Shown here piece after piece: positions 8,964-50,348 of a DNA stretch of 64,000 bases; position 1 is the stretch's first letter, and every line of letters starts with the position of its first letter. The position numbers and the translations under genes are program-made. The notes below the pieces were generated by a model. It had not been told where the DNA came from, did not search any database, and saw only the letters and a program-made list of their open reading frames with translations. Source of the DNA: Escherichia phage saus132; sequence record NC_047884.1. The stretch is one strand, 5' to 3'.

Positions 8964-9180
8964 AAAGTGGGAAACAAGGAAGTTTCCCGTAAAAGAACGT
9001 AAAACTTCTGTTTACGATACTGCGGAGAAACTATGTAGGGTTGTACCACCTCGTCTCGCGGGCATCCCTAACGTCTCCATATGGTTACTTAAACAACGGA
9101 AGACTCGTGTGTCTCTTCGCATTGGCTTTGAGTTAGATAAAGTCTATGCTGAACTTGCTTCTTTGCTCAAAGAATCGTAA
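8947..9180 (+). CDS. Hypothetical small protein
   Basis: ORF overlapping end of upstream gene; start set at internal ATG. Confidence 0.35.
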   Translation: MTAKNKKWETRKFPVKERKTSVYDTAEKLCRVVPPRLAGIPNVSIWLLKQRKTRVSLRIGFELDKVYAELASLLKES

Positions 9181-9188
9181 AAATTTAT

Positions 9189-9217
9189 TTGCTTTCAGAA
9201 AAATTTTTCTGTATAAT
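9189..9217 (+). promoter_or_regulatory. PN25-like strong early promoter
   Basis: AAATTTATTTGCTTTCAG-AAAATTTTTCTGTATAATAGATTCATAAATTTGAGAGAGGAG matches the published T5 PN25 sequence (from memory) almost base for base. Confidence 0.8.
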
Positions 9218-9248
9218 AGATTCATAAATTTGAGAGAGGAGTTTAAAT

Positions 9249-10220: not shown

Positions 10221-10249
10221 TTGCTCAATCCTATAATTCTTGATATAAT
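10221..10249 (+). promoter_or_regulatory. Early promoter
   Basis: TTGCTC, 17 bp spacer, TGaTATAAT. Confidence 0.45.
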
Positions 10250-11101: not shown

Positions 11102-11410
11102 ATGAGCGATCAGGTAAATCAAAACTATGAAGGACACGTTGACGACCAGTCCATCATGCTTTGGGAGAAGGAGGGGGAACAAGTAAGACTAACCGTATCT
11201 GAATTTCGTGGGAATCTATACATGGGAATTCGTTACTGGCTCCAAGATATTACTGGAGAGTGGTTTCCAACGAAATCCGGCTTCTCTTTTCCTTATACCC
11301 TAGAAACTACATCACAGCTATTCTACGCTTTTACGCAAATCCTCAGTGAATCCGAGGTCTTGCATGAAGTACAGAAACGAGCTGAAGAACTCAAAGCCAA
11401 GAATGCCTAG
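11102..11410 (+). CDS. PC4-like single-stranded DNA-binding protein
   Basis: VRLTVSEFRGNLYMGIRYWLQD...PTKSGFSF resembles the PC4/Sub1 ssDNA-binding fold signature. Confidence 0.6.
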   Translation: MSDQVNQNYEGHVDDQSIMLWEKEGEQVRLTVSEFRGNLYMGIRYWLQDITGEWFPTKSGFSFPYTLETTSQLFYAFTQILSESEVLHEVQKRAEELKAKNA

Positions 11411-11423
11411 TTCTTGGCTTTTT
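11395..11423 (+). terminator. Rho-independent terminator
   Basis: GCCAAGAA-tgcctag-TTCTTGGC followed by TTTTT. Confidence 0.55.
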
Positions 11424-11438
11424 CTTTATAAATGTACT

Positions 11439-11466
11439 TGCTTTCATCCCTATTTTCTTATATAAT
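11439..11466 (+). promoter_or_regulatory. Early promoter
   Basis: TTGCTT, 16 bp spacer, TATAAT, then TAGTTATATAAATTAATGAGAGGGG block. Confidence 0.5.
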
Positions 11467-11495
11467 AGTTATATAAATTAATGAGAGGGGTGAAT

Positions 11496-11768
11496 ATGAA
11501 AAAGATAAAAATAAGTCCACTTAAACCTTTACCGTACATAGGACAGTCTTTAGTTCTTTCCTGGGAAGAAAAGCTCAATGGAGAGAAGGTACGTATGGTT
11601 CGACAGGGGTATAAACTTATATCTCTCGCTTACGAAGCAAACACATTAGTTGCTGATATTTACTCTCCAATAACTCAAAGAGTGGGAAGTACTACCTATC
11701 TTTGCTTATGTAAGAACTTTACATGGCAGGGGGATACTATTCAGCCTAAAGCATATGAGGTACAGTAA
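11496..11768 (+). CDS. Hypothetical protein
   Basis: ATG 11496 behind RBS GAGAGGGG (track start 11481). Confidence 0.5.
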   Translation: MKKIKISPLKPLPYIGQSLVLSWEEKLNGEKVRMVRQGYKLISLAYEANTLVADIYSPITQRVGSTTYLCLCKNFTWQGDTIQPKAYEVQ

Positions 11769-11963
11769 ATGGCAATAACACTTCCAAAGATTCAAGCAAA
11801 ACTTAATTTGCTCTCCATAGCAAGAATCAATTACCAGGATAGTATCGGCACTCCAAACCAGAAAGCGTACAAAGATGCGTGGTTGAAAGAAGCTGCTGAT
11901 TTAGCTGGTATGGCTGCGCAGTATAGTAAAGAACTCAAAATGGAAATCGCAGATGATGAATAA
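11769..11963 (+). CDS. Hypothetical small protein
   Basis: ORF abutting upstream stop. Confidence 0.45.
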   Translation: MAITLPKIQAKLNLLSIARINYQDSIGTPNQKAYKDAWLKEAADLAGMAAQYSKELKMEIADDE

Positions 11964-12927
11964 TGTAAAAGACTTTATTAAACGTTGTCAAGAAGCGTAC
12001 TACCAGGGAATGAGTCTTATTTCCGATGAAGAATATGATCGTCTGATTAAAAGATTCCCACTAGAGGAAGAAATCGGACCGAAAGGTGATATCCCTCATT
12101 TGTATCGTATGTATTCTTTGCAGAAAGTCTATTACGATCGTGGTGATAAAGCTCCATTCAACCCACTTGGTCAGGTTGAAACTGATAAGTTAGATGGTTG
12201 TGCGATTTCTCTATTATATATTAATGGTGAATTTATTCAAGCGTTAACTCGTGGTAACGGTATTCTAGGGAATGATGTAACGCATAATGTTAAAATGCTG
12301 AACATCCCTAAAACTATCTCCCAAAAAGTTCCAACTCAAATCACTGGTGAAGTTCTCATCACTAAAGAAGTAGAGAACAAACGTAACTATGCTTCCGGTG
12401 CTATTAACTTGAAAGATAGTGATGATTTCATGCAACGTATTGGTGAAGGTGGTTTAATCTTCGTTGCATATGGTATCCAGTGTTCAGCGGAAACAGTCGG
12501 TATTACAGAAGCCTATTTAAAAGATATGCTTTGGCTAGAGAATGAGAACTTCTTGACAGTTGTTAATGTTCGTTCCTTCTTTAAGTGGATTCCGACGGAT
12601 GGTAAAGTTGTTCGTATTAATGATAACAACAAATTCTTCCGTGAAGGTTGGACTAATAAATTTCCTCGCGGTGCATTTGCTATTAAAGAGGATGAAGAAG
12701 GCGAAATTACCACACTTGTTAAAGTTGAATGGCAAGTAGGGGCTTCTGGTAAAGTAACTCCAGTTGGTTATTTCGAACCGGTGATTATTGATGATGCCAC
12801 AATCGTTAAAGCAACTCTTAATAACGTTGATTATATTAACGCTCTCGATTTAGAGATCGGTTGCCAGATTCGAGTGATTCGTGCTGGTGGTGTAATCCCT
12901 TGTATAGTAGAGCGAGTATACGACTAA
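11953..12927 (+). CDS. NAD-dependent DNA ligase, N-terminal (adenylation) part of a split gene
   Basis: Adenylation motif KLDGCAISLLY (KxDG) in LigA-like context. Confidence 0.85.
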   Translation: MMNNVKDFIKRCQEAYYQGMSLISDEEYDRLIKRFPLEEEIGPKGDIPHLYRMYSLQKVYYDRGDKAPFNPLGQVETDKLDGCAISLLYINGEFIQALTRGNGILGNDVTHNVKMLNIPKTISQKVPTQITGEVLITKEVENKRNYASGAINLKDSDDFMQRIGEGGLIFVAYGIQCSAETVGITEAYLKDMLWLENENFLTVVNVRSFFKWIPTDGKVVRINDNNKFFREGWTNKFPRGAFAIKEDEEGEITTLVKVEWQVGASGKVTPVGYFEPVIIDDATIVKATLNNVDYINALDLEIGCQIRVIRAGGVIPCIVERVYD

Positions 12928-12977
12928 TTCGTAACCCTTTGCTACCCGTTTACCATGTCGGAATTATAAAGTGGTTA

Positions 12978-13006
12978 TTGACATTTTCGCCGCTTAGGTA
13001 TATACT
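12978..13006 (+). promoter_or_regulatory. Near-consensus sigma70 promoter between the two ligase ORFs
   Basis: TTGACA, 17 bp spacer, TATACT. Confidence 0.55.
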
Positions 13007-13070
13007 ATTATCATTCAGTTGAGGGATAGAAAGTTATGGCGAGGGTAAGCAAAGTTAGTTAAAATTGTAG

Positions 13071-13099
13071 TTGCTAAATGCTTAAATACTTGCTATAAT
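13071..13099 (+). promoter_or_regulatory. Early promoter before ligase C-terminal ORF
   Basis: TTGCTA, 17 bp spacer, TGcTATAAT, then ATTTATATAAATTGATAAGGAAG. Confidence 0.5.
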
Positions 13100-13129
13100 A
13101 TTTATATAAATTGATAAGGAAGAAATTTG

Positions 13130-13909
13130 ATGAAAATCGAAATTCCAACACAATGTCCCTCTTGTGGTTCTAAGCTAGATCTTGTCAACGGGCAATTATT
13201 CTGTAGGAATAAGTCCAACTGTCCAGCACAATCAAGTAAGTTAATCGAGAACTTCTGCACAAAAATGAAGTTAAAGGGCTTTGGCCCGAAAACTATTGAG
13301 AAGCTGGAACTGACTAAGATCTCAGAACTGTTTTACCTGACCGAAGAAGATTTGGTCGGAGCTGTGGGTAGCAAGGTTGCCGCTAAGTTGATTAGCGAGT
13401 TAAATACTAAGGTTCGCGGAGACATTGACTTTGGTTCGGTTCTCGGTTCTTTAGGAATTCCTCTTATTGGAGAGGTTGCAGCAAAGAAACTGTCCCAAAA
13501 TTGCACTAGCTTCCACGATGTGAAGGCTGACGGCAAGGCTGGAGAAAATTACAAAACCTGGCTAAATTCCCCACAAGGCAAGGATGTTATTGAATTACCA
13601 TGGAAATTCTCAACTGGTATTCGAGGTACTAAAGCTGATATCATCATTACGGATGATTTAGTTGCCCAGCCAAATGGAATCACGATCTGTATTACCGGAT
13701 CTTTGCAAGATTTTGCAAATCGAACGGATGCAACAAACTATTTAGAAAGTCTAGGATATACGGTTAAGAAATCCGTTACCAAAGACGTCAAATACCTAAT
13801 CTGTGAGGATGAATCAAAACGTTCTTCCTCATCTTATAAGAAAGCCGAAACGAATGGGATAGAAATCCTGTCGATTAAAGAACTATTGGAGAAAAATAAT
13901 AATGTCTAA
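13130..13909 (+). CDS. NAD-dependent DNA ligase, C-terminal part (zinc finger, HhH, BRCT-like)
   Basis: CPSCGSKL...CRNKSNCPAQ Cys4 zinc finger; GIPLIGEVAAKKL HhH-like; C-terminal BRCT-like region. Confidence 0.85.
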   Translation: MKIEIPTQCPSCGSKLDLVNGQLFCRNKSNCPAQSSKLIENFCTKMKLKGFGPKTIEKLELTKISELFYLTEEDLVGAVGSKVAAKLISELNTKVRGDIDFGSVLGSLGIPLIGEVAAKKLSQNCTSFHDVKADGKAGENYKTWLNSPQGKDVIELPWKFSTGIRGTKADIIITDDLVAQPNGITICITGSLQDFANRTDATNYLESLGYTVKKSVTKDVKYLICEDESKRSSSSYKKAETNGIEILSIKELLEKNNNV

Positions 13910-14669
13910 ACTGAACTGGAACGTAGAAGGTGTAACCGAGTCTCTGAAAGCAAAAGCCACTGCTCTGGGTGTTGCTGTAATCTCTCAAGAACAAGTAGCT
14001 GCTATCGCTGCTGAACTGGCTACCGAGACTGGTAAAGACGTTACCGCTCGCTCTGTTGGCTCTAAGCTGCGTAAAGAAGGTTTCGAAGTACAGAAAGCTA
14101 ACGAAGTACAGAAATCCCCGTGGACTCCTGAGCAGGAAGCTGAACTAGTTGATTTCCTGAACGCTCATGCTGGTCAGTATACTTACGCTGAAATCGCTGC
14201 TGCTGTAGCTGGTGGTCAGTTCGGTGCTAAGCAGGTACAGGGTAAGATCCTGAGTCTGGAAATGACTGCTTCTGTTAAGCCAACTGAAAAAGCTGCTGCT
14301 GTTCGTTCCTTCACTCCTGACGAAGAAACTGATTTCGTTAATCAGGTTGTTGCTGGTGCTACTATTGAAGCTATCGCTGCTCACTTCGGTCGTAATATTA
14401 AGCAGATCCGTGGTAAAGCTCTGAGCCTGCTTCGTGAAGGTCGTATCGCTGCTATGCCGGTACAGGAAACATCAAGTGCTAAGACTCGTGAAGATCTGTT
14501 AGAAGGTCTGGATCTGGCTTCCATGACTGTTGCAGAAGTTGCTGAGAAAACTGGTAAGTCTGAGCGCGGTGTTAAATCTATGCTGTCTCGTCGTGGTCTG
14601 GTTGCTAAGGACTATGATGGTGCTGCTAAGCGTGCTAAACTGGATGCAAAAGCTGCGGCTGCTGAATAA
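13902..14669 (+). CDS. Alanine-rich protein with three HTH-like repeats; likely abundant DNA-binding protein
   Basis: Three repeats of the pattern aEIAAxxG...KQIxGKxLSL; high-expression codon usage. Confidence 0.55.
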   Translation: MSKLNWNVEGVTESLKAKATALGVAVISQEQVAAIAAELATETGKDVTARSVGSKLRKEGFEVQKANEVQKSPWTPEQEAELVDFLNAHAGQYTYAEIAAAVAGGQFGAKQVQGKILSLEMTASVKPTEKAAAVRSFTPDEETDFVNQVVAGATIEAIAAHFGRNIKQIRGKALSLLREGRIAAMPVQETSSAKTREDLLEGLDLASMTVAEVAEKTGKSERGVKSMLSRRGLVAKDYDGAAKRAKLDAKAAAAE

Positions 14670-14684
14670 TCTGGTAAATTAAAC

Positions 14685-14720
14685 CTAAGGGGAGGGGGCT
14701 ATGCTCCTTCCCCTTTTTGC
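14685..14720 (+). terminator. Rho-independent terminator
   Basis: AAGGGGAGGGGG-cta-tgCTCCTTCCCCTT followed by TTTTT. Confidence 0.6.
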
Positions 14721-14751
14721 ATTTAGAAGGCACGAAAGCGTGCAAAGGAGA

Positions 14752-16224
14752 ATGACCTTGTTTAACGTGCAAGCTGTAGTGTTGAAGATGCTTCTCGCTT
14801 CTGAACAGAAGCAAATAGCATTGGAAACATTCTCAAAACTGCATAAAGATCATTTTAATGACGCTTTCTCCTCAATTTACCAAGCCGTCCAGAATTATTA
14901 TAAGAAATATAACGCAATGCCGTCCATTGACGCACTGATGCTTGAGGCCAATAGGAACGCCCGCCTTTCTCAAGCTCTTGTCGTCTTAGCTAACACTCAA
15001 ATTCCAGAAGTGAGCATGGAACAGGCACTTGAAGTCCTAGAAGCTGAATATACACAGGATCTATTCCTGAAACTTCTAGAAACAGACGTGCTTCAAGATT
15101 TAACAATGCTGGATCAGGGAGAAATTCTCAATCGAGTTGCCTCCCTTCACTTAAAATTAGAAGAGAAAGTAACGAATACTGGAAAGGTATTCAACGCAGA
15201 CACAATGCGTATTTTCCAGAGAGAAGAAGATACCAAACTGAACTTGATCGCTCTTGGTATTTGTAATGAGTTCGACGCTCAAATTGGTTTAGCTCGCACA
15301 GAAACGTTACTGCTTGGTGGTTGGCGTGGTACTGGTAAATCCATTATCTGTTCAAACATACAGGTTCAGCAATATTTGAATGGAGACATTGCTCCATATT
15401 TCTCAATTGAGATGAAAGAGCACGAAGTGTTTAGACGTAATCTGGCTATGTTAGCTGGAGTATCTGCATTAGCAATGCGTAATAACACTCTTGAAGGTGC
15501 TGCTCTGTTGAGATTAGCCAGAACTAGGGCTAGAATGTTTAATGGTGGTGAAGAGCTTTTCGATAGTTTCGTTAAGCAATACACTATGGCTAAAATGAGT
15601 GACTTCTATGATATGGAAAGTAAACTCCTTGAAGGCTATGAGCTTCACACTCCTATGATCATCGTTTACGATCCTGAACTGTCTATTACGACGGTTGACG
15701 TAGAATTAAATAAACTAGTTGCTAAGTATGGTGATAAGGTTACTGTAGCTCTTCTAGACTATATTAACCAAACAAGACTTCCAGATTCAAAGACCATTGA
15801 CATGTATGACTGGAAAGAACAGATGGTTGTTAGTTCGTCTTTCAAATCTATCTGCCAGAAACATAACGTGGCTGGTGTTGCTCCTTACCAGATTGACCAA
15901 GATGGTAGAACGCGTATGTCTAAAGGGATTCTTGATTCCGCAGATATGGCTGCTAATCTTAATGCTGCAAAAGCTGATAATGGTCAAGGTGCTATTATGT
16001 TTGACTTCGTTAAGACTCGTTCCTCTGATAGTGTGAAGTTTATGCCTAAGATGAACTGGGAAACTCTGCGAATGGATAACACTACCAACCTAGCAATGGA
16101 AGATATTGCGCAAATGGAAGCTGAGTTCGTTATTCCTATTGAAAAGGATAAACCAGCTCAACCTAAACGTGCTAAGAAAGACAAAGCTGAAAATTCAACA
16201 GGTGAACAGGCCAGCGATATATGA
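14752..16224 (+). CDS. DnaB-like replicative helicase (RecA-fold ATPase)
   Basis: Walker A GGWRGTGKS; track start 14701 lies inside the upstream terminator hairpin so start moved to ATG 14752 (or TTG 14758). Confidence 0.7.
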   Translation: MTLFNVQAVVLKMLLASEQKQIALETFSKLHKDHFNDAFSSIYQAVQNYYKKYNAMPSIDALMLEANRNARLSQALVVLANTQIPEVSMEQALEVLEAEYTQDLFLKLLETDVLQDLTMLDQGEILNRVASLHLKLEEKVTNTGKVFNADTMRIFQREEDTKLNLIALGICNEFDAQIGLARTETLLLGGWRGTGKSIICSNIQVQQYLNGDIAPYFSIEMKEHEVFRRNLAMLAGVSALAMRNNTLEGAALLRLARTRARMFNGGEELFDSFVKQYTMAKMSDFYDMESKLLEGYELHTPMIIVYDPELSITTVDVELNKLVAKYGDKVTVALLDYINQTRLPDSKTIDMYDWKEQMVVSSSFKSICQKHNVAGVAPYQIDQDGRTRMSKGILDSADMAANLNAAKADNGQGAIMFDFVKTRSSDSVKFMPKMNWETLRMDNTTNLAMEDIAQMEAEFVIPIEKDKPAQPKRAKKDKAENSTGEQASDI

Positions 16225-49824: not shown

Positions 49825-50348
49825 TATAAGAACCTTGCGAATCCTGATTTAGTTTCAGTCTTGACTTGTGTCTTTTCTTGAGGATTCTGTAGCTTTTCCT
49901 TTTGTTTAAGAACCCATGCCTTCTGCTTATTAGCAGAAAAAAGGGGAGGTTCCTTAGTGTACACCTTATGTAATAGTTGGTGATGGTGGACACAAAGGGT
50001 AACAGTGTCATCTACTAGCTCATGCCTATATCTTTCATAGAATGCCGTCCTATTTGAGAGGACTGTTTCTTCGTCAGTGAAATCCAATTGGAGTTCTTTA
50101 GCAAATTTTTTAACTAGTAGAGACACTGTATGGTAATGATGAAGCTCTAATTCTTCACCACAACCACAGATTTCGCAGCGATCGGCTTTTTTATATTGAC
50201 TTTTTATACCGTCTCGCATGAGTGATATAGCATCACGTTTATATTTTACATTTCCTGCCACAGTATTCTCCTCAACTGTATGAATATAGTATACATAATC
50301 ATGTCGAATTTGTAAAGGGGATTTTAAAATGCAGGAATGGGATACCAA
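49824..50348 (-). CDS. HNH-type endonuclease-like protein between terminase and portal (start uncertain)
   Basis: CEICGCGEELELHHYH...CVHHHQLLH Cys/His cluster. Confidence 0.5.
   Translation of the reverse strand: MVSHSCILKSPLQIRHDYVYYIHTVEENTVAGNVKYKRDAISLMRDGIKSQYKKADRCEICGCGEELELHHYHTVSLLVKKFAKELQLDFTDEETVLSNRTAFYERYRHELVDDTVTLCVHHHQLLHKVYTKEPPLFSANKQKAWVLKQKEKLQNPQEKTQVKTETKSGFARFL

Follow-up and report, generated by a model that had tools for sequence, protein, structure and literature searches.

The split NAD+-dependent DNA ligase of the T5-like phages is already known, as are the T5 promoters between its two genes, and both GenBank and the literature have contained it for some two decades. 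The T5 record (AY543070), for a genome described by Wang et al. 2005 as cited in PMC1684257, annotates in order ligA (T5.116; AAS77162), promoter P-K 28b, promoter P-K 28a, and ligB (T5.117; AAS77163), with a further promoter directly upstream of ligA; a literature search for the promoter names K28a and K28b returned nothing useful. The ligase of Providencia phage PR1 (PDB 9HU3 and 9I5I, released 2026-01-14) is an NAD+ ligase of two chains, with its domains divided between them in the same way. Foldseek gives the title of 9HU3 as 'PR1 phage heterodimeric DNA ligase in complex with 21-mer nicked DNA containing phage nick sequence'; its chain A is named 'DNA ligase (NAD(+))', and its chain B was 100% identical to a Providencia phage PR1 protein (tblastn). 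Single-chain LigA enzymes (E. coli 2OWO; T. filiformis 1DGS/1V9P) consist of one polypeptide of ~670 aa, and compact unsplit NAD+ ligases of 511-578 aa are found in metagenomes (e.g., P0033, P0055, and P0106). The fragment of another NAD+ ligase comprising domain Ia, the nucleotidyltransferase (NTase) domain, and the OB fold self-adenylates but cannot ligate (PMC1684257).

The window analyzed here, the whole 64,000-nt stretch from Escherichia phage saus132 (NC_047884.1), was 100% identical to T5-like phage chee130_1. An earlier note on this DNA had described a ligase split into two ORFs with promoters in a gap of about 200 bp, and this arrangement proved to be real: ORF A (ligA) and ORF B (ligB) lie in different reading frames and are separated by 202 non-coding bases, which hold two sigma-70 promoters and 5-7 stop codons per frame, closing all three frames (Table 1). 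A second ATG of ligA at 11956, giving 323 aa, is the start used in the T5 annotation. Gene order, split point, gap length, both promoters, and the D5 gene that follows ligB are those of T5, whose LigA and LigB share ~95-96% protein identity with the proteins of the window. The locus differs from T5 in two small additional ORFs (11481-11963), which follow the upstream early promoter and precede ligA, and is otherwise of the same kind; neither ORF had a Pfam match, and the annotation of phage atrejo lists both as hypothetical proteins.

The same gene arrangement was present in 428 phage records, many of which annotate NAD-dependent DNA ligase subunits A and B. The C-terminus of ORF A (...IPCIVERVYD*) and the N-terminus of ORF B (MKIEIPTQCPSCG) are alike in T5, in Klebsiella, Proteus, and Vibrio phages, and in 80 IMG/VR loci. 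The modules that the LigA family carries on one polypeptide are distributed over two ORFs, which defines the heterodimeric sub-type, and, as in T5-type heterodimeric ligases, ligA and ligB are adjacent in this order on the same strand, with the break in the linker between the OB fold and the zinc finger. We consider it very probable that they encode the heterodimeric NAD+-dependent DNA ligase, made of two subunits, that is known from T5-like phages (Demerecviridae), and that the gap is a maintained operon boundary; none of the observations conflicts with this reading. The earlier suggestion of a two-subunit ligase was right, given the subunits A and B annotated in T5 and its relatives and the PR1 pair solved as a heterodimer; by analogy, the saus132 proteins would form a heterodimer with ligase activity.

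Table 1. Features of the ligA-ligB region (window coordinates).
Feature	Position	Strand	Details and basis
T5-type early promoter TTGCTT-17-TATAAT	11438-11466	+	Aligns with other early-promoter copies; heads the operon ending in ligA
Small ORF, 95 aa	11481-11768	+	Between early promoter and ligA
Small ORF, 64 aa	11769-11963	+	Overlaps ligA start
ligA, ligase subunit A	11953-12927	+	324 aa; domain Ia, nucleotidyltransferase (adenylation) domain, OB fold
Motif I KLDG (KxDG)	12187-12198	+	Alignment to 2OWO and 4GLX
Variable spacer after ligA stop	12928-12977	+	Insertion site in relatives
Promoter P-K28b, TTGACA-17-TATACT	12978-13006	+	11/12 consensus; start expected at ~13013-13014
P28b leader	13021-13063	+	Conserved SD-like GAGGGA (13021-13026); 8-codon mini-ORF (13037-13063)
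Promoter P-K28a, TTGCTA-17-TGcTATAAT, extended -10	13071-13099	+	10/12 consensus (+TG); start expected at ~13106
ligB Shine-Dalgarno AAGGAAG	13116-13122	+	Sequence; ATG at 13130
ligB, ligase subunit B	13130-13909	+	259 aa; Cys4 zinc finger, helix-hairpin-helix (HhH) domain, BRCT
Cys4 zinc finger of LigB	13154-13222	+	C9, C12, C25, and C31 invariant in 43 homologues
D5, DNA-binding early protein	13902-14669	+	Start overlaps ligB stop; annotated in T5 and atrejo
Intrinsic terminator-like hairpin, 13 pairs and T run	14687-14715	+	Scan; closes the ligB-D5 unit

Pfam placed the NAD-ligase adenylation domain (PF01653, E 3e-23) and the NAD-ligase OB fold (PF03120, E 9.4e-22, residues 253-322, ~12709-12918) in ORF A. 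The earlier note had let the adenylation domain end at 12927, which is incomplete, since ORF A also holds the OB fold. For domain Ia, the stretch AYY...ISDEEYDRL (residues 15-31) aligned to the T. filiformis and E. coli ligases with a weak local score, a likeness at the motif level only. In ORF B, a BRCT domain was detected (PF00533, E 7.5e-9, 36.1 bits vs a cut-off of 21.3; ~13673-13891), and the HhH match remained below its Pfam cut-off (21.6 vs 27 bits). The AlphaFold model of LigB (pLDDT 91.5) gave Foldseek matches to 9hu3_B and 2owo_A, the match to 2OWO extending over 174 columns (E 1.4e-7). The zinc-finger/HhH/BRCT part that had been placed from 13130 onward was thus borne out by the invariant cysteines, the predicted fold, and Pfam, respectively.

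When LigA was aligned with E. coli LigA, residues K79, R100, E133, D216-G217, and K245 corresponded to K115, R136, E173, D285-G286, and K314, and the catalytic residues K79, D81, G82, R100, E133, and K245 were all in place. K79, the equivalent of E. coli K115, is the predicted AMP-accepting lysine. In motif IV, R221 takes the place of E. coli K290, and the PR1 homologue likewise has an arginine. The roles of the E. coli LigA motif residues were reportedly established by mutagenesis in the Shuman laboratory.

Comparison with unsplit LigA, which the earlier note had proposed, located the break between the OB fold and the zinc finger, near E. coli residues 393/400. LigA residues 215-321 aligned to E. 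coli LigA 284-390 and LigB residues 3-122 to 402-529, with A324 at approximately E. coli position 393 and B1 at approximately 400. The split point was identical across 10 annotated genomes; relative to fused forms, ~2-6 linker residues are absent at the junction, and no extra protein sequence is present.

Chains A and B of the PR1 structures (9HU3/9I5I) matched ORF A (E 1.6e-106) and ORF B (E 9.2e-80), respectively. Identity was moderate (53% for LigB, Foldseek), and the PR1 chains comprise 339 and 248 aa, compared with the 324 and 259 aa encoded here. The title and chains of 9HU3 document an A-B complex on nicked DNA for PR1, and a similar complex may be expected in saus132 by homology. Single-chain LigA shares all six modules, their order, and the catalytic motifs, and differs from the ligase of the window in its single polypeptide and in the NTase domain, which is shortened here. 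The compact metagenomic ligases have the same compact size and domain order but are encoded by a single ORF; they are among the nearest relatives of LigB, to which they are 33-40% identical over its full length, and their linker aligns with the C-terminus of LigA and the N-terminus of LigB. At 50% identity, stand-alone LigB formed ~100 clusters vs 11 fused compact forms, and the fused forms were scattered through an unresolved neighbour-joining tree of LigB modules, built to distinguish fission from fusion. A search of IMG/VR for a close relative of P0033, the nearest fused form, found none, returning only split loci and distant canonical ligases.

The near-consensus promoter and the second early promoter that had been read in the gap are present and correspond to the promoters named in T5: 'promoter P-K 28b' (66366-66440 in T5) maps to window positions 12958-13032, and 'promoter P-K 28a' (66459-66533) to 13051-13125. 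P28a, which reads TATAATATT, belongs to an early-promoter family repeated within the window and has ATATT, the discriminator reported for early promoters of T5 (PMC7472727). P28b (TATACTATT) is without ATATT and resembles one other module, a paralogue of its -10/leader/SD segment on the minus strand at 50270-50293. Sigma-70 hexamer matches were not enriched in the region (6 seen vs 7.6 expected from shuffles); the reality of the two promoters is therefore argued from their conservation and the T5 annotation, and not from the consensus match alone. Their activity is taken from the annotation of the T5 record, and the start sites in Table 1 are predicted.

The P28b leader folds strongly, with a hairpin that encloses the P28a promoter (z -4.7, significant in the window). 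No consensus structure was found across the family, the hairpin was not significant in relatives, and the gaps of close relatives vary too little for a covariation test. The mini-ORF of this leader was not conserved as an ORF in the alignments, and no ORF following a start signal in the gap was longer than 8 codons. Within the window, the only parts of the gap with counterparts elsewhere were the P28a core, which resembles other early promoters, and the P28b -10/leader, which has one paralogue; a repeated cassette comparable to T4-type promoter cassettes was considered and rejected, as the window contained no repeated 200-bp unit.

Conservation of the locus was high at the level of gene order and within the gap itself. 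The order ligA-gap-ligB-D5 was found in all 80 IMG/VR loci fetched with LigB and in 12 further loci holding both halves; in every related locus examined (>100), split point and order were uniform, ligA and ligB co-occurred wherever the locus extended far enough to show both, and a D5 homologue lay 3' of every ligB. Between the window and T5, 197/202 positions of the gap were identical (97.5%), vs 63-86% at synonymous sites of the flanking genes, measured roughly as four-fold-degenerate third positions of conserved residues; for a Klebsiella phage, the corresponding values were 77% vs 41-45%. Across 27 relatives, only 8 rare variant sites were observed in 12960-13129, none of them in a promoter hexamer, and 9 of the 17 variable gap sites fell within 12928-12959. 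The P-K28b hexamers were invariant in these 27 relatives, with an equivalent site in Klebsiella, Proteus, and Vibrio phages, and conservation of P-K28a reached the Vibrio phages. A strong promoter immediately before ligB is kept from T5 out to Vibrio phages and environmental relatives, the latter having gaps of only 64-118 nt with one consensus promoter. Since the gap is better conserved than synonymous sites and the promoter is kept across the family, the gap is a maintained operon boundary and not a decaying scar.

Over the relatives as a whole, the ligA-ligB gap ranged from 64 nt to 1374 nt, sometimes holding whole genes, and the gaps differed only upstream of the conserved ligB promoter. 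A 64-aa ORF is inserted in the post-ligA spacer of 8sent65 and TrudiRoth, and Proteus and Vibrio phages carry other genes between ligA and ligB; the latter were considered as homing endonucleases and rejected, being ordinary genes, one of them DprA-like.

The two halves had been said to be independently transcribable. This is supported for ligB only, which has the named T5 promoters in front of it. Scanning of 11400-14800 found no terminator after ligA, the hairpin behind D5 being the only plus-strand terminator-like site; ligB is therefore probably also reached by read-through from upstream. The overlap of ligB and D5 suggests that their translation may be coupled.

The earlier note had also offered another origin for the gap, as the scar of an excised mobile element. 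On this reading, an intron or homing-endonuclease cassette would have interrupted a formerly continuous ligase gene, and the gap would now be decaying neutral DNA. The existence of unsplit compact relatives means that fission, or else fusion, happened at some time, and the variable inserts of relatives could be read in the same sense, particularly a GIY-YIG homing endonuclease ORF in the post-ligA spacer of Salmonella phage SP3 and one other phage. This gene, however, was present in 3 of 50,697 phage records (two distinct phages), upstream of an intact promoter pair, and is a rare secondary insertion; it was the one mobile element that the proposed check of relatives yielded at this position. 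A search of 11400-14800 in the window gave no Rfam match, intron or otherwise, at E <= 1. A scar is further disfavored by the constraint on the gap above that on flanking synonymous sites, by its content of two T5-annotated promoters conserved to Vibrio phages, by the short one-promoter gaps of environmental relatives, by the ordinary nature of the Proteus and Vibrio inserts, and by the lack of a repeated cassette, and we consider it very unlikely. A single protein made from both ORFs, whether by splicing of RNA or protein or by translational bypass, has nothing in its favor beyond the adjacency of the halves. It conflicts with the same Rfam result, with the Shine-Dalgarno sequence and ATG of ligB, with protein ends that lack linker residues and bear no extra sequence, with gaps of relatives that can accommodate whole genes, and with the two separate chains of the PR1 homologue; its probability is minute.

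A sequencing or assembly error, or a recent pseudogene whose true form is one continuous ORF, deserves practically no credence: no supporting point was found, closure would require a 202-bp change and not a frameshift given the stops in each frame, and the structure recurs in the 428 independently sequenced phage records and 80 IMG/VR contigs. Both halves are moreover under purifying selection, with second-codon-position identity to T5 of 98-99% and third-position identity of 72-87%. The halves might instead have diverged in function, LigB mainly serving another role, such as that of a DNA-binding or BRCT scaffold with D5, and LigA acting alone or with a host factor. The ties of ligB to D5 (tandem promoters of its own, start/stop overlap, and adjacency in every examined ligB locus) and the difference in GC3 (0.29 in ligA vs 0.40 in ligB) would fit this idea. 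Against it, both PR1 homologues are present in one structure with nicked DNA, titled a 'heterodimeric DNA ligase', a fragment of another NAD+ ligase limited to Ia, NTase, and OB is unable to ligate by itself (PMC1684257), and ligA and ligB co-occur in every locus long enough to show both. Functional divergence is accordingly highly improbable, and an additional role of LigB is unsupported.

Under the preferred reading of a heterodimeric ligase, LigA (Ia-NTase-OB) would be the catalytic core, self-adenylating on K79 with NAD+, and LigB (zinc finger-HhH-BRCT) would be the DNA-clamping module, which in single-chain LigA is on the same chain. The subunits would associate non-covalently around the nick and seal it, the polypeptide break lying in the flexible OB/zinc-finger linker, where only a few residues are missing relative to fused relatives. 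At the transcriptional level, ligA would be the last gene of the upstream early unit, and ligB and D5 would be transcribed as one unit from the tandem early promoters P-K28b and P-K28a, ending at the terminator downstream of D5. The split could be kept for regulation, with LigB produced together with D5 from its own promoters, LigA from the upstream operon, and the folding P28b leader as part of the control, although we regard this as unlikely. If so, ligase activity could depend on how much LigB is present and follow a timing different from that of LigA, for instance to control at what stage the site-specific nicks of T5-type genomes are closed or stay unsealed.

To what was known of T5 and PR1, the present comparison adds the uniform split point and gene order, the conservation of the gap, and the family-wide ligB promoter. 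The T5-type ligase is a clean natural case of a multidomain enzyme that is cut at a linker and works as two subunits. The comparative picture, with an invariant split point, a promoter always before ligB-D5, an insertion-tolerant post-ligA spacer, and the counts of stand-alone vs fused forms, may help explain why the split is maintained.

The region 11700-14200 of the window was 100% identical to 'Bacteriophage T5-like chee130_1', and most of it was found in 428 phage records, many of which label the ORFs as subunits A and B of an NAD-dependent DNA ligase. In the T5 reference (AY543070), the annotated order is ligA (T5.116), 'promoter P-K 28b', 'promoter P-K 28a', ligB (T5.117), and D5. The non-coding gap between the ligase genes was identical to that of T5 at 197 of 202 positions, and the T5 promoter features mapped onto both promoter sites that an earlier note had described there, so that these are borne out by promoters annotated by name. 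When structures 9HU3 and 9I5I were compared with the two products, chain A (339 aa) matched ORF A (LigA) with an E value of 1.6e-106, and chain B (248 aa), identical to LigB of Providencia phage PR1, matched ORF B (LigB) with 9.2e-80. The PDB entry, released 2026-01-14, is titled 'PR1 phage heterodimeric DNA ligase in complex with 21-mer nicked DNA containing phage nick sequence'. Both ORFs are close homologs of this pair, whose structure on nicked DNA was determined as that of a heterodimer; with the T5 ligA/ligB annotation, this bears out the proposal of a two-subunit ligase. The gene pair, its promoters, and a homologous structure are already known.

Jointly, the ORFs account for all modules of a LigA-type ligase, with the cut falling in a linker. 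Their boundaries had been correctly located in the earlier note, which described the first half as the adenylation domain; that domain is present in ORF A (Pfam, E 3e-23), and an OB fold of the NAD-ligase type (E 9e-22) had been left out. ORF A also carries an N-terminal domain Ia motif (AYY...ISDEEYDRL), and its R100, E133, and K245 aligned with R136, E173, and K314 of E. coli LigA, while R221 stands in place of K290. ORF B contains a BRCT domain (Pfam, E 7.5e-9) and an N-terminal zinc finger of the Cys4 type, with cysteines that do not vary across 43 homologs; in its AlphaFold model (pLDDT 91.5), the zinc-finger/HhH region matched LigA structures. In the comparison with unsplit LigA that had been proposed (E. 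coli LigA, 2OWO), residues 215-321 of ORF A aligned with residues 284-390 and residues 3-122 of ORF B with residues 402-529, which places the break in the linker between OB fold and zinc finger, around positions 393/400 of the E. coli enzyme. The GC content at third codon positions was 0.29 in ligA and 0.40 in ligB (11953-13909), and third-position identity to T5 was 72% and 87%, respectively, ligA being far more diverged.

Features of the ligase region and related elements (window coordinates)
Feature	Position	Strand	Remarks
ORF A (ligA)	11953-12927	+	324 aa; 323 aa from ATG at 11956, the start used in the T5 annotation
Motif I, KLDG, in ligA	12187-12198	+	
P-K28b, TTGACA-17-TATACT	12978-13006	+	scan
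P-K28a, TTGCTA-17-TATAAT with upstream TG	13071-13099	+	scan
Shine-Dalgarno of ligB, AAGGAAG	13116-13122	+	
ORF B (ligB)	13130-13909	+	259 aa
Terminator-like hairpin	14687-14715	+	3' of D5; 13 pairs, 8 GC, T run; sole one on + strand in scanned region
Two small ORFs	11481-11963	+	95 and 64 aa; between early promoter 11438-11466 and ligA; no Pfam hit
Promoter TTTGCTT-17-TATAAT, then agattcataaatttgagagaggagttt	9177-9245		

The ORFs lie in different frames. A frameshift was excluded as the cause of the split, because each frame of the gap holds 5-7 stop codons. The scar of a mobile element, also suggested in the earlier note, was rejected, since the gap is more conserved than flanking synonymous positions and its promoter content is kept in relatives. 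Gap identity to T5 was 97.5%, compared with 63% (ligA) and 86% (ligB) at roughly four-fold-degenerate third codon positions; for a Klebsiella phage, the values were 77% for the gap and 41-45% for such positions in the flanking genes. Among 27 T5-group contigs, 17 of 202 gap sites varied, compared with 71/300 and 46/300 in adjacent coding DNA; nine of these 17 fell within the first 32 bases past the ligA stop and none in the promoter hexamers. The arrangement TTGAC[AG]-17-TATA[AC]T, followed about 95 nt on by TTGC..-TATAAT, lies directly 5' of ligB in Klebsiella, Proteus, and Vibrio phages too, whose ligase proteins are merely 50-73% identical. Environmental relatives, at 38-45% identity, have a gap of no more than 64-118 nt with one near-consensus promoter. 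The region had no match to Rfam families, and the gap was not found as a repeated cassette within the window.

What varies in relatives is the stretch from the ligA stop to the promoters, which holds a 64-aa ORF in 8sent65 and TrudiRoth; in Proteus and Vibrio phages, it contains between one and three genes. No homing endonuclease was found among the Proteus and Vibrio inserts, one of which is DprA-like: Vibrio T5-like phages VPG01 and Achelous (loci L004, 3885-4448, and L006, 4127-4687) carry a gene for a DprA-like recombination mediator (phrog_768, E about 1e-49) beside one or two small ORFs between ligA and ligB. The suggested search of relatives for an endonuclease did yield a 218-aa GIY-YIG ORF (Pfam, E 1e-5) between the ligA stop and P-K28b in Salmonella phage SP3 (MG387042; locus L036, 3184-3840), present at this site only there and in vB_Sen_SG_WM_RUS_R2. 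This gene is a rare late arrival in a pre-existing intergenic region and not the origin of the split. SP3 LigA is 92% identical to that of the window, compared with 95-96% for most T5-group loci, a divergence that fits the expectation near a homing site.

The order ligA-gap-ligB-D5, on one strand and with an identical break, occurred in every one of the 80 IMG/VR loci that LigB retrieved; 12 further loci holding both halves also had this order. When LigB was run with HMMER against all 1.84 billion representatives, 3988 hits were obtained. Each of the top 32 was a stand-alone protein of about 250 aa, with an alignment that begins at residue 1. The best 150 hits comprised 100 stand-alone forms, 12 canonical LigA of at least 600 aa (from rank 118), and 11 unsplit compact NAD+ ligases of 511-578 aa (P0033, P0055, P0084, P0086, P0104, P0106, P0110, P0112, P0120, P0132, and P0136), the first at rank 33 with 37% identity. 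The linker of the compact forms lines up with the LigA end and LigB start, with only about 2 extra residues. These fused ligases, which are interspersed with about 100 stand-alone clusters of LigB-like proteins, may be ancestral or re-fused; a neighbor-joining tree of LigB modules did not separate one fission from several fusions.

Consensus promoter matches were not enriched in the region (6 observed, 7.6 expected), so the case for the promoters rests on comparison with relatives. The promoter at 9177-9245 matches the classic T5 PN25 promoter of expression vectors, and other members of this early-promoter family have -10 hexamers beginning at 10244, 11461, 22138, 22239, 54015, and 61055. Among the T5-family early promoters that recur along the window, P-K28a is typical, and it has the ATATT discriminator noted for T5 early promoters (PMC7472727). 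RNA from the P-K28b start to ligB (13013-13145) folded at -30.7 kcal/mol, compared with -17.3 for shuffled controls (z -4.7), and the P-K28a promoter lies entirely inside its main hairpin (about 13033-13100). No leader structure conserved across the family was found: the hairpin is not kept in Klebsiella, Proteus, or Vibrio relatives, and the 27 T5-group contigs vary too little in the gap for covariation. Downstream of P-K28b lie a conserved SD-like GAGGGA and an unconserved 8-codon ORF (MARVSKVS and stop; 13021-13063). The -10/leader/SD module TATACTAT..TCAT.CAGTTGAGG has one further copy in the window (50270-50293, minus strand), where none is expected by chance, and this copy precedes a real gene with a GTG start near 50261.

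In T5, the corresponding early promoter directly precedes ligA, and the two small ORFs of the window are therefore read as lineage-specific insertions. The promoter at 11438-11466 would drive these ORFs and ligA, with some transcription probably reading through past ligA, because the + strand scan found no terminator-like site between ORFs A and B. P-K28b and P-K28a would add transcripts from near 13013 and 13106 covering ligB and D5. The D5 start codon and the ligB stop share bases (ATGTCTAA), an overlap that suggests translational coupling. The ligB-D5 unit would close at the hairpin at 14687-14715. The annotated ATG (14701) of D6, the DnaB-like helicase gene that comes next, falls at the loop of this strong hairpin, and its G-rich 5' arm could also serve as the D6 ribosome-binding site.

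A fragment of another NAD+ ligase comprising Ia, NTase, and OB self-adenylates but does not ligate (PMC1684257). LigA would self-adenylate at K79 using NAD+, LigB would contribute the BRCT domain and a clamp made up of the zinc finger and HhH, and the LigA-LigB complex would encircle nicks and then seal them.
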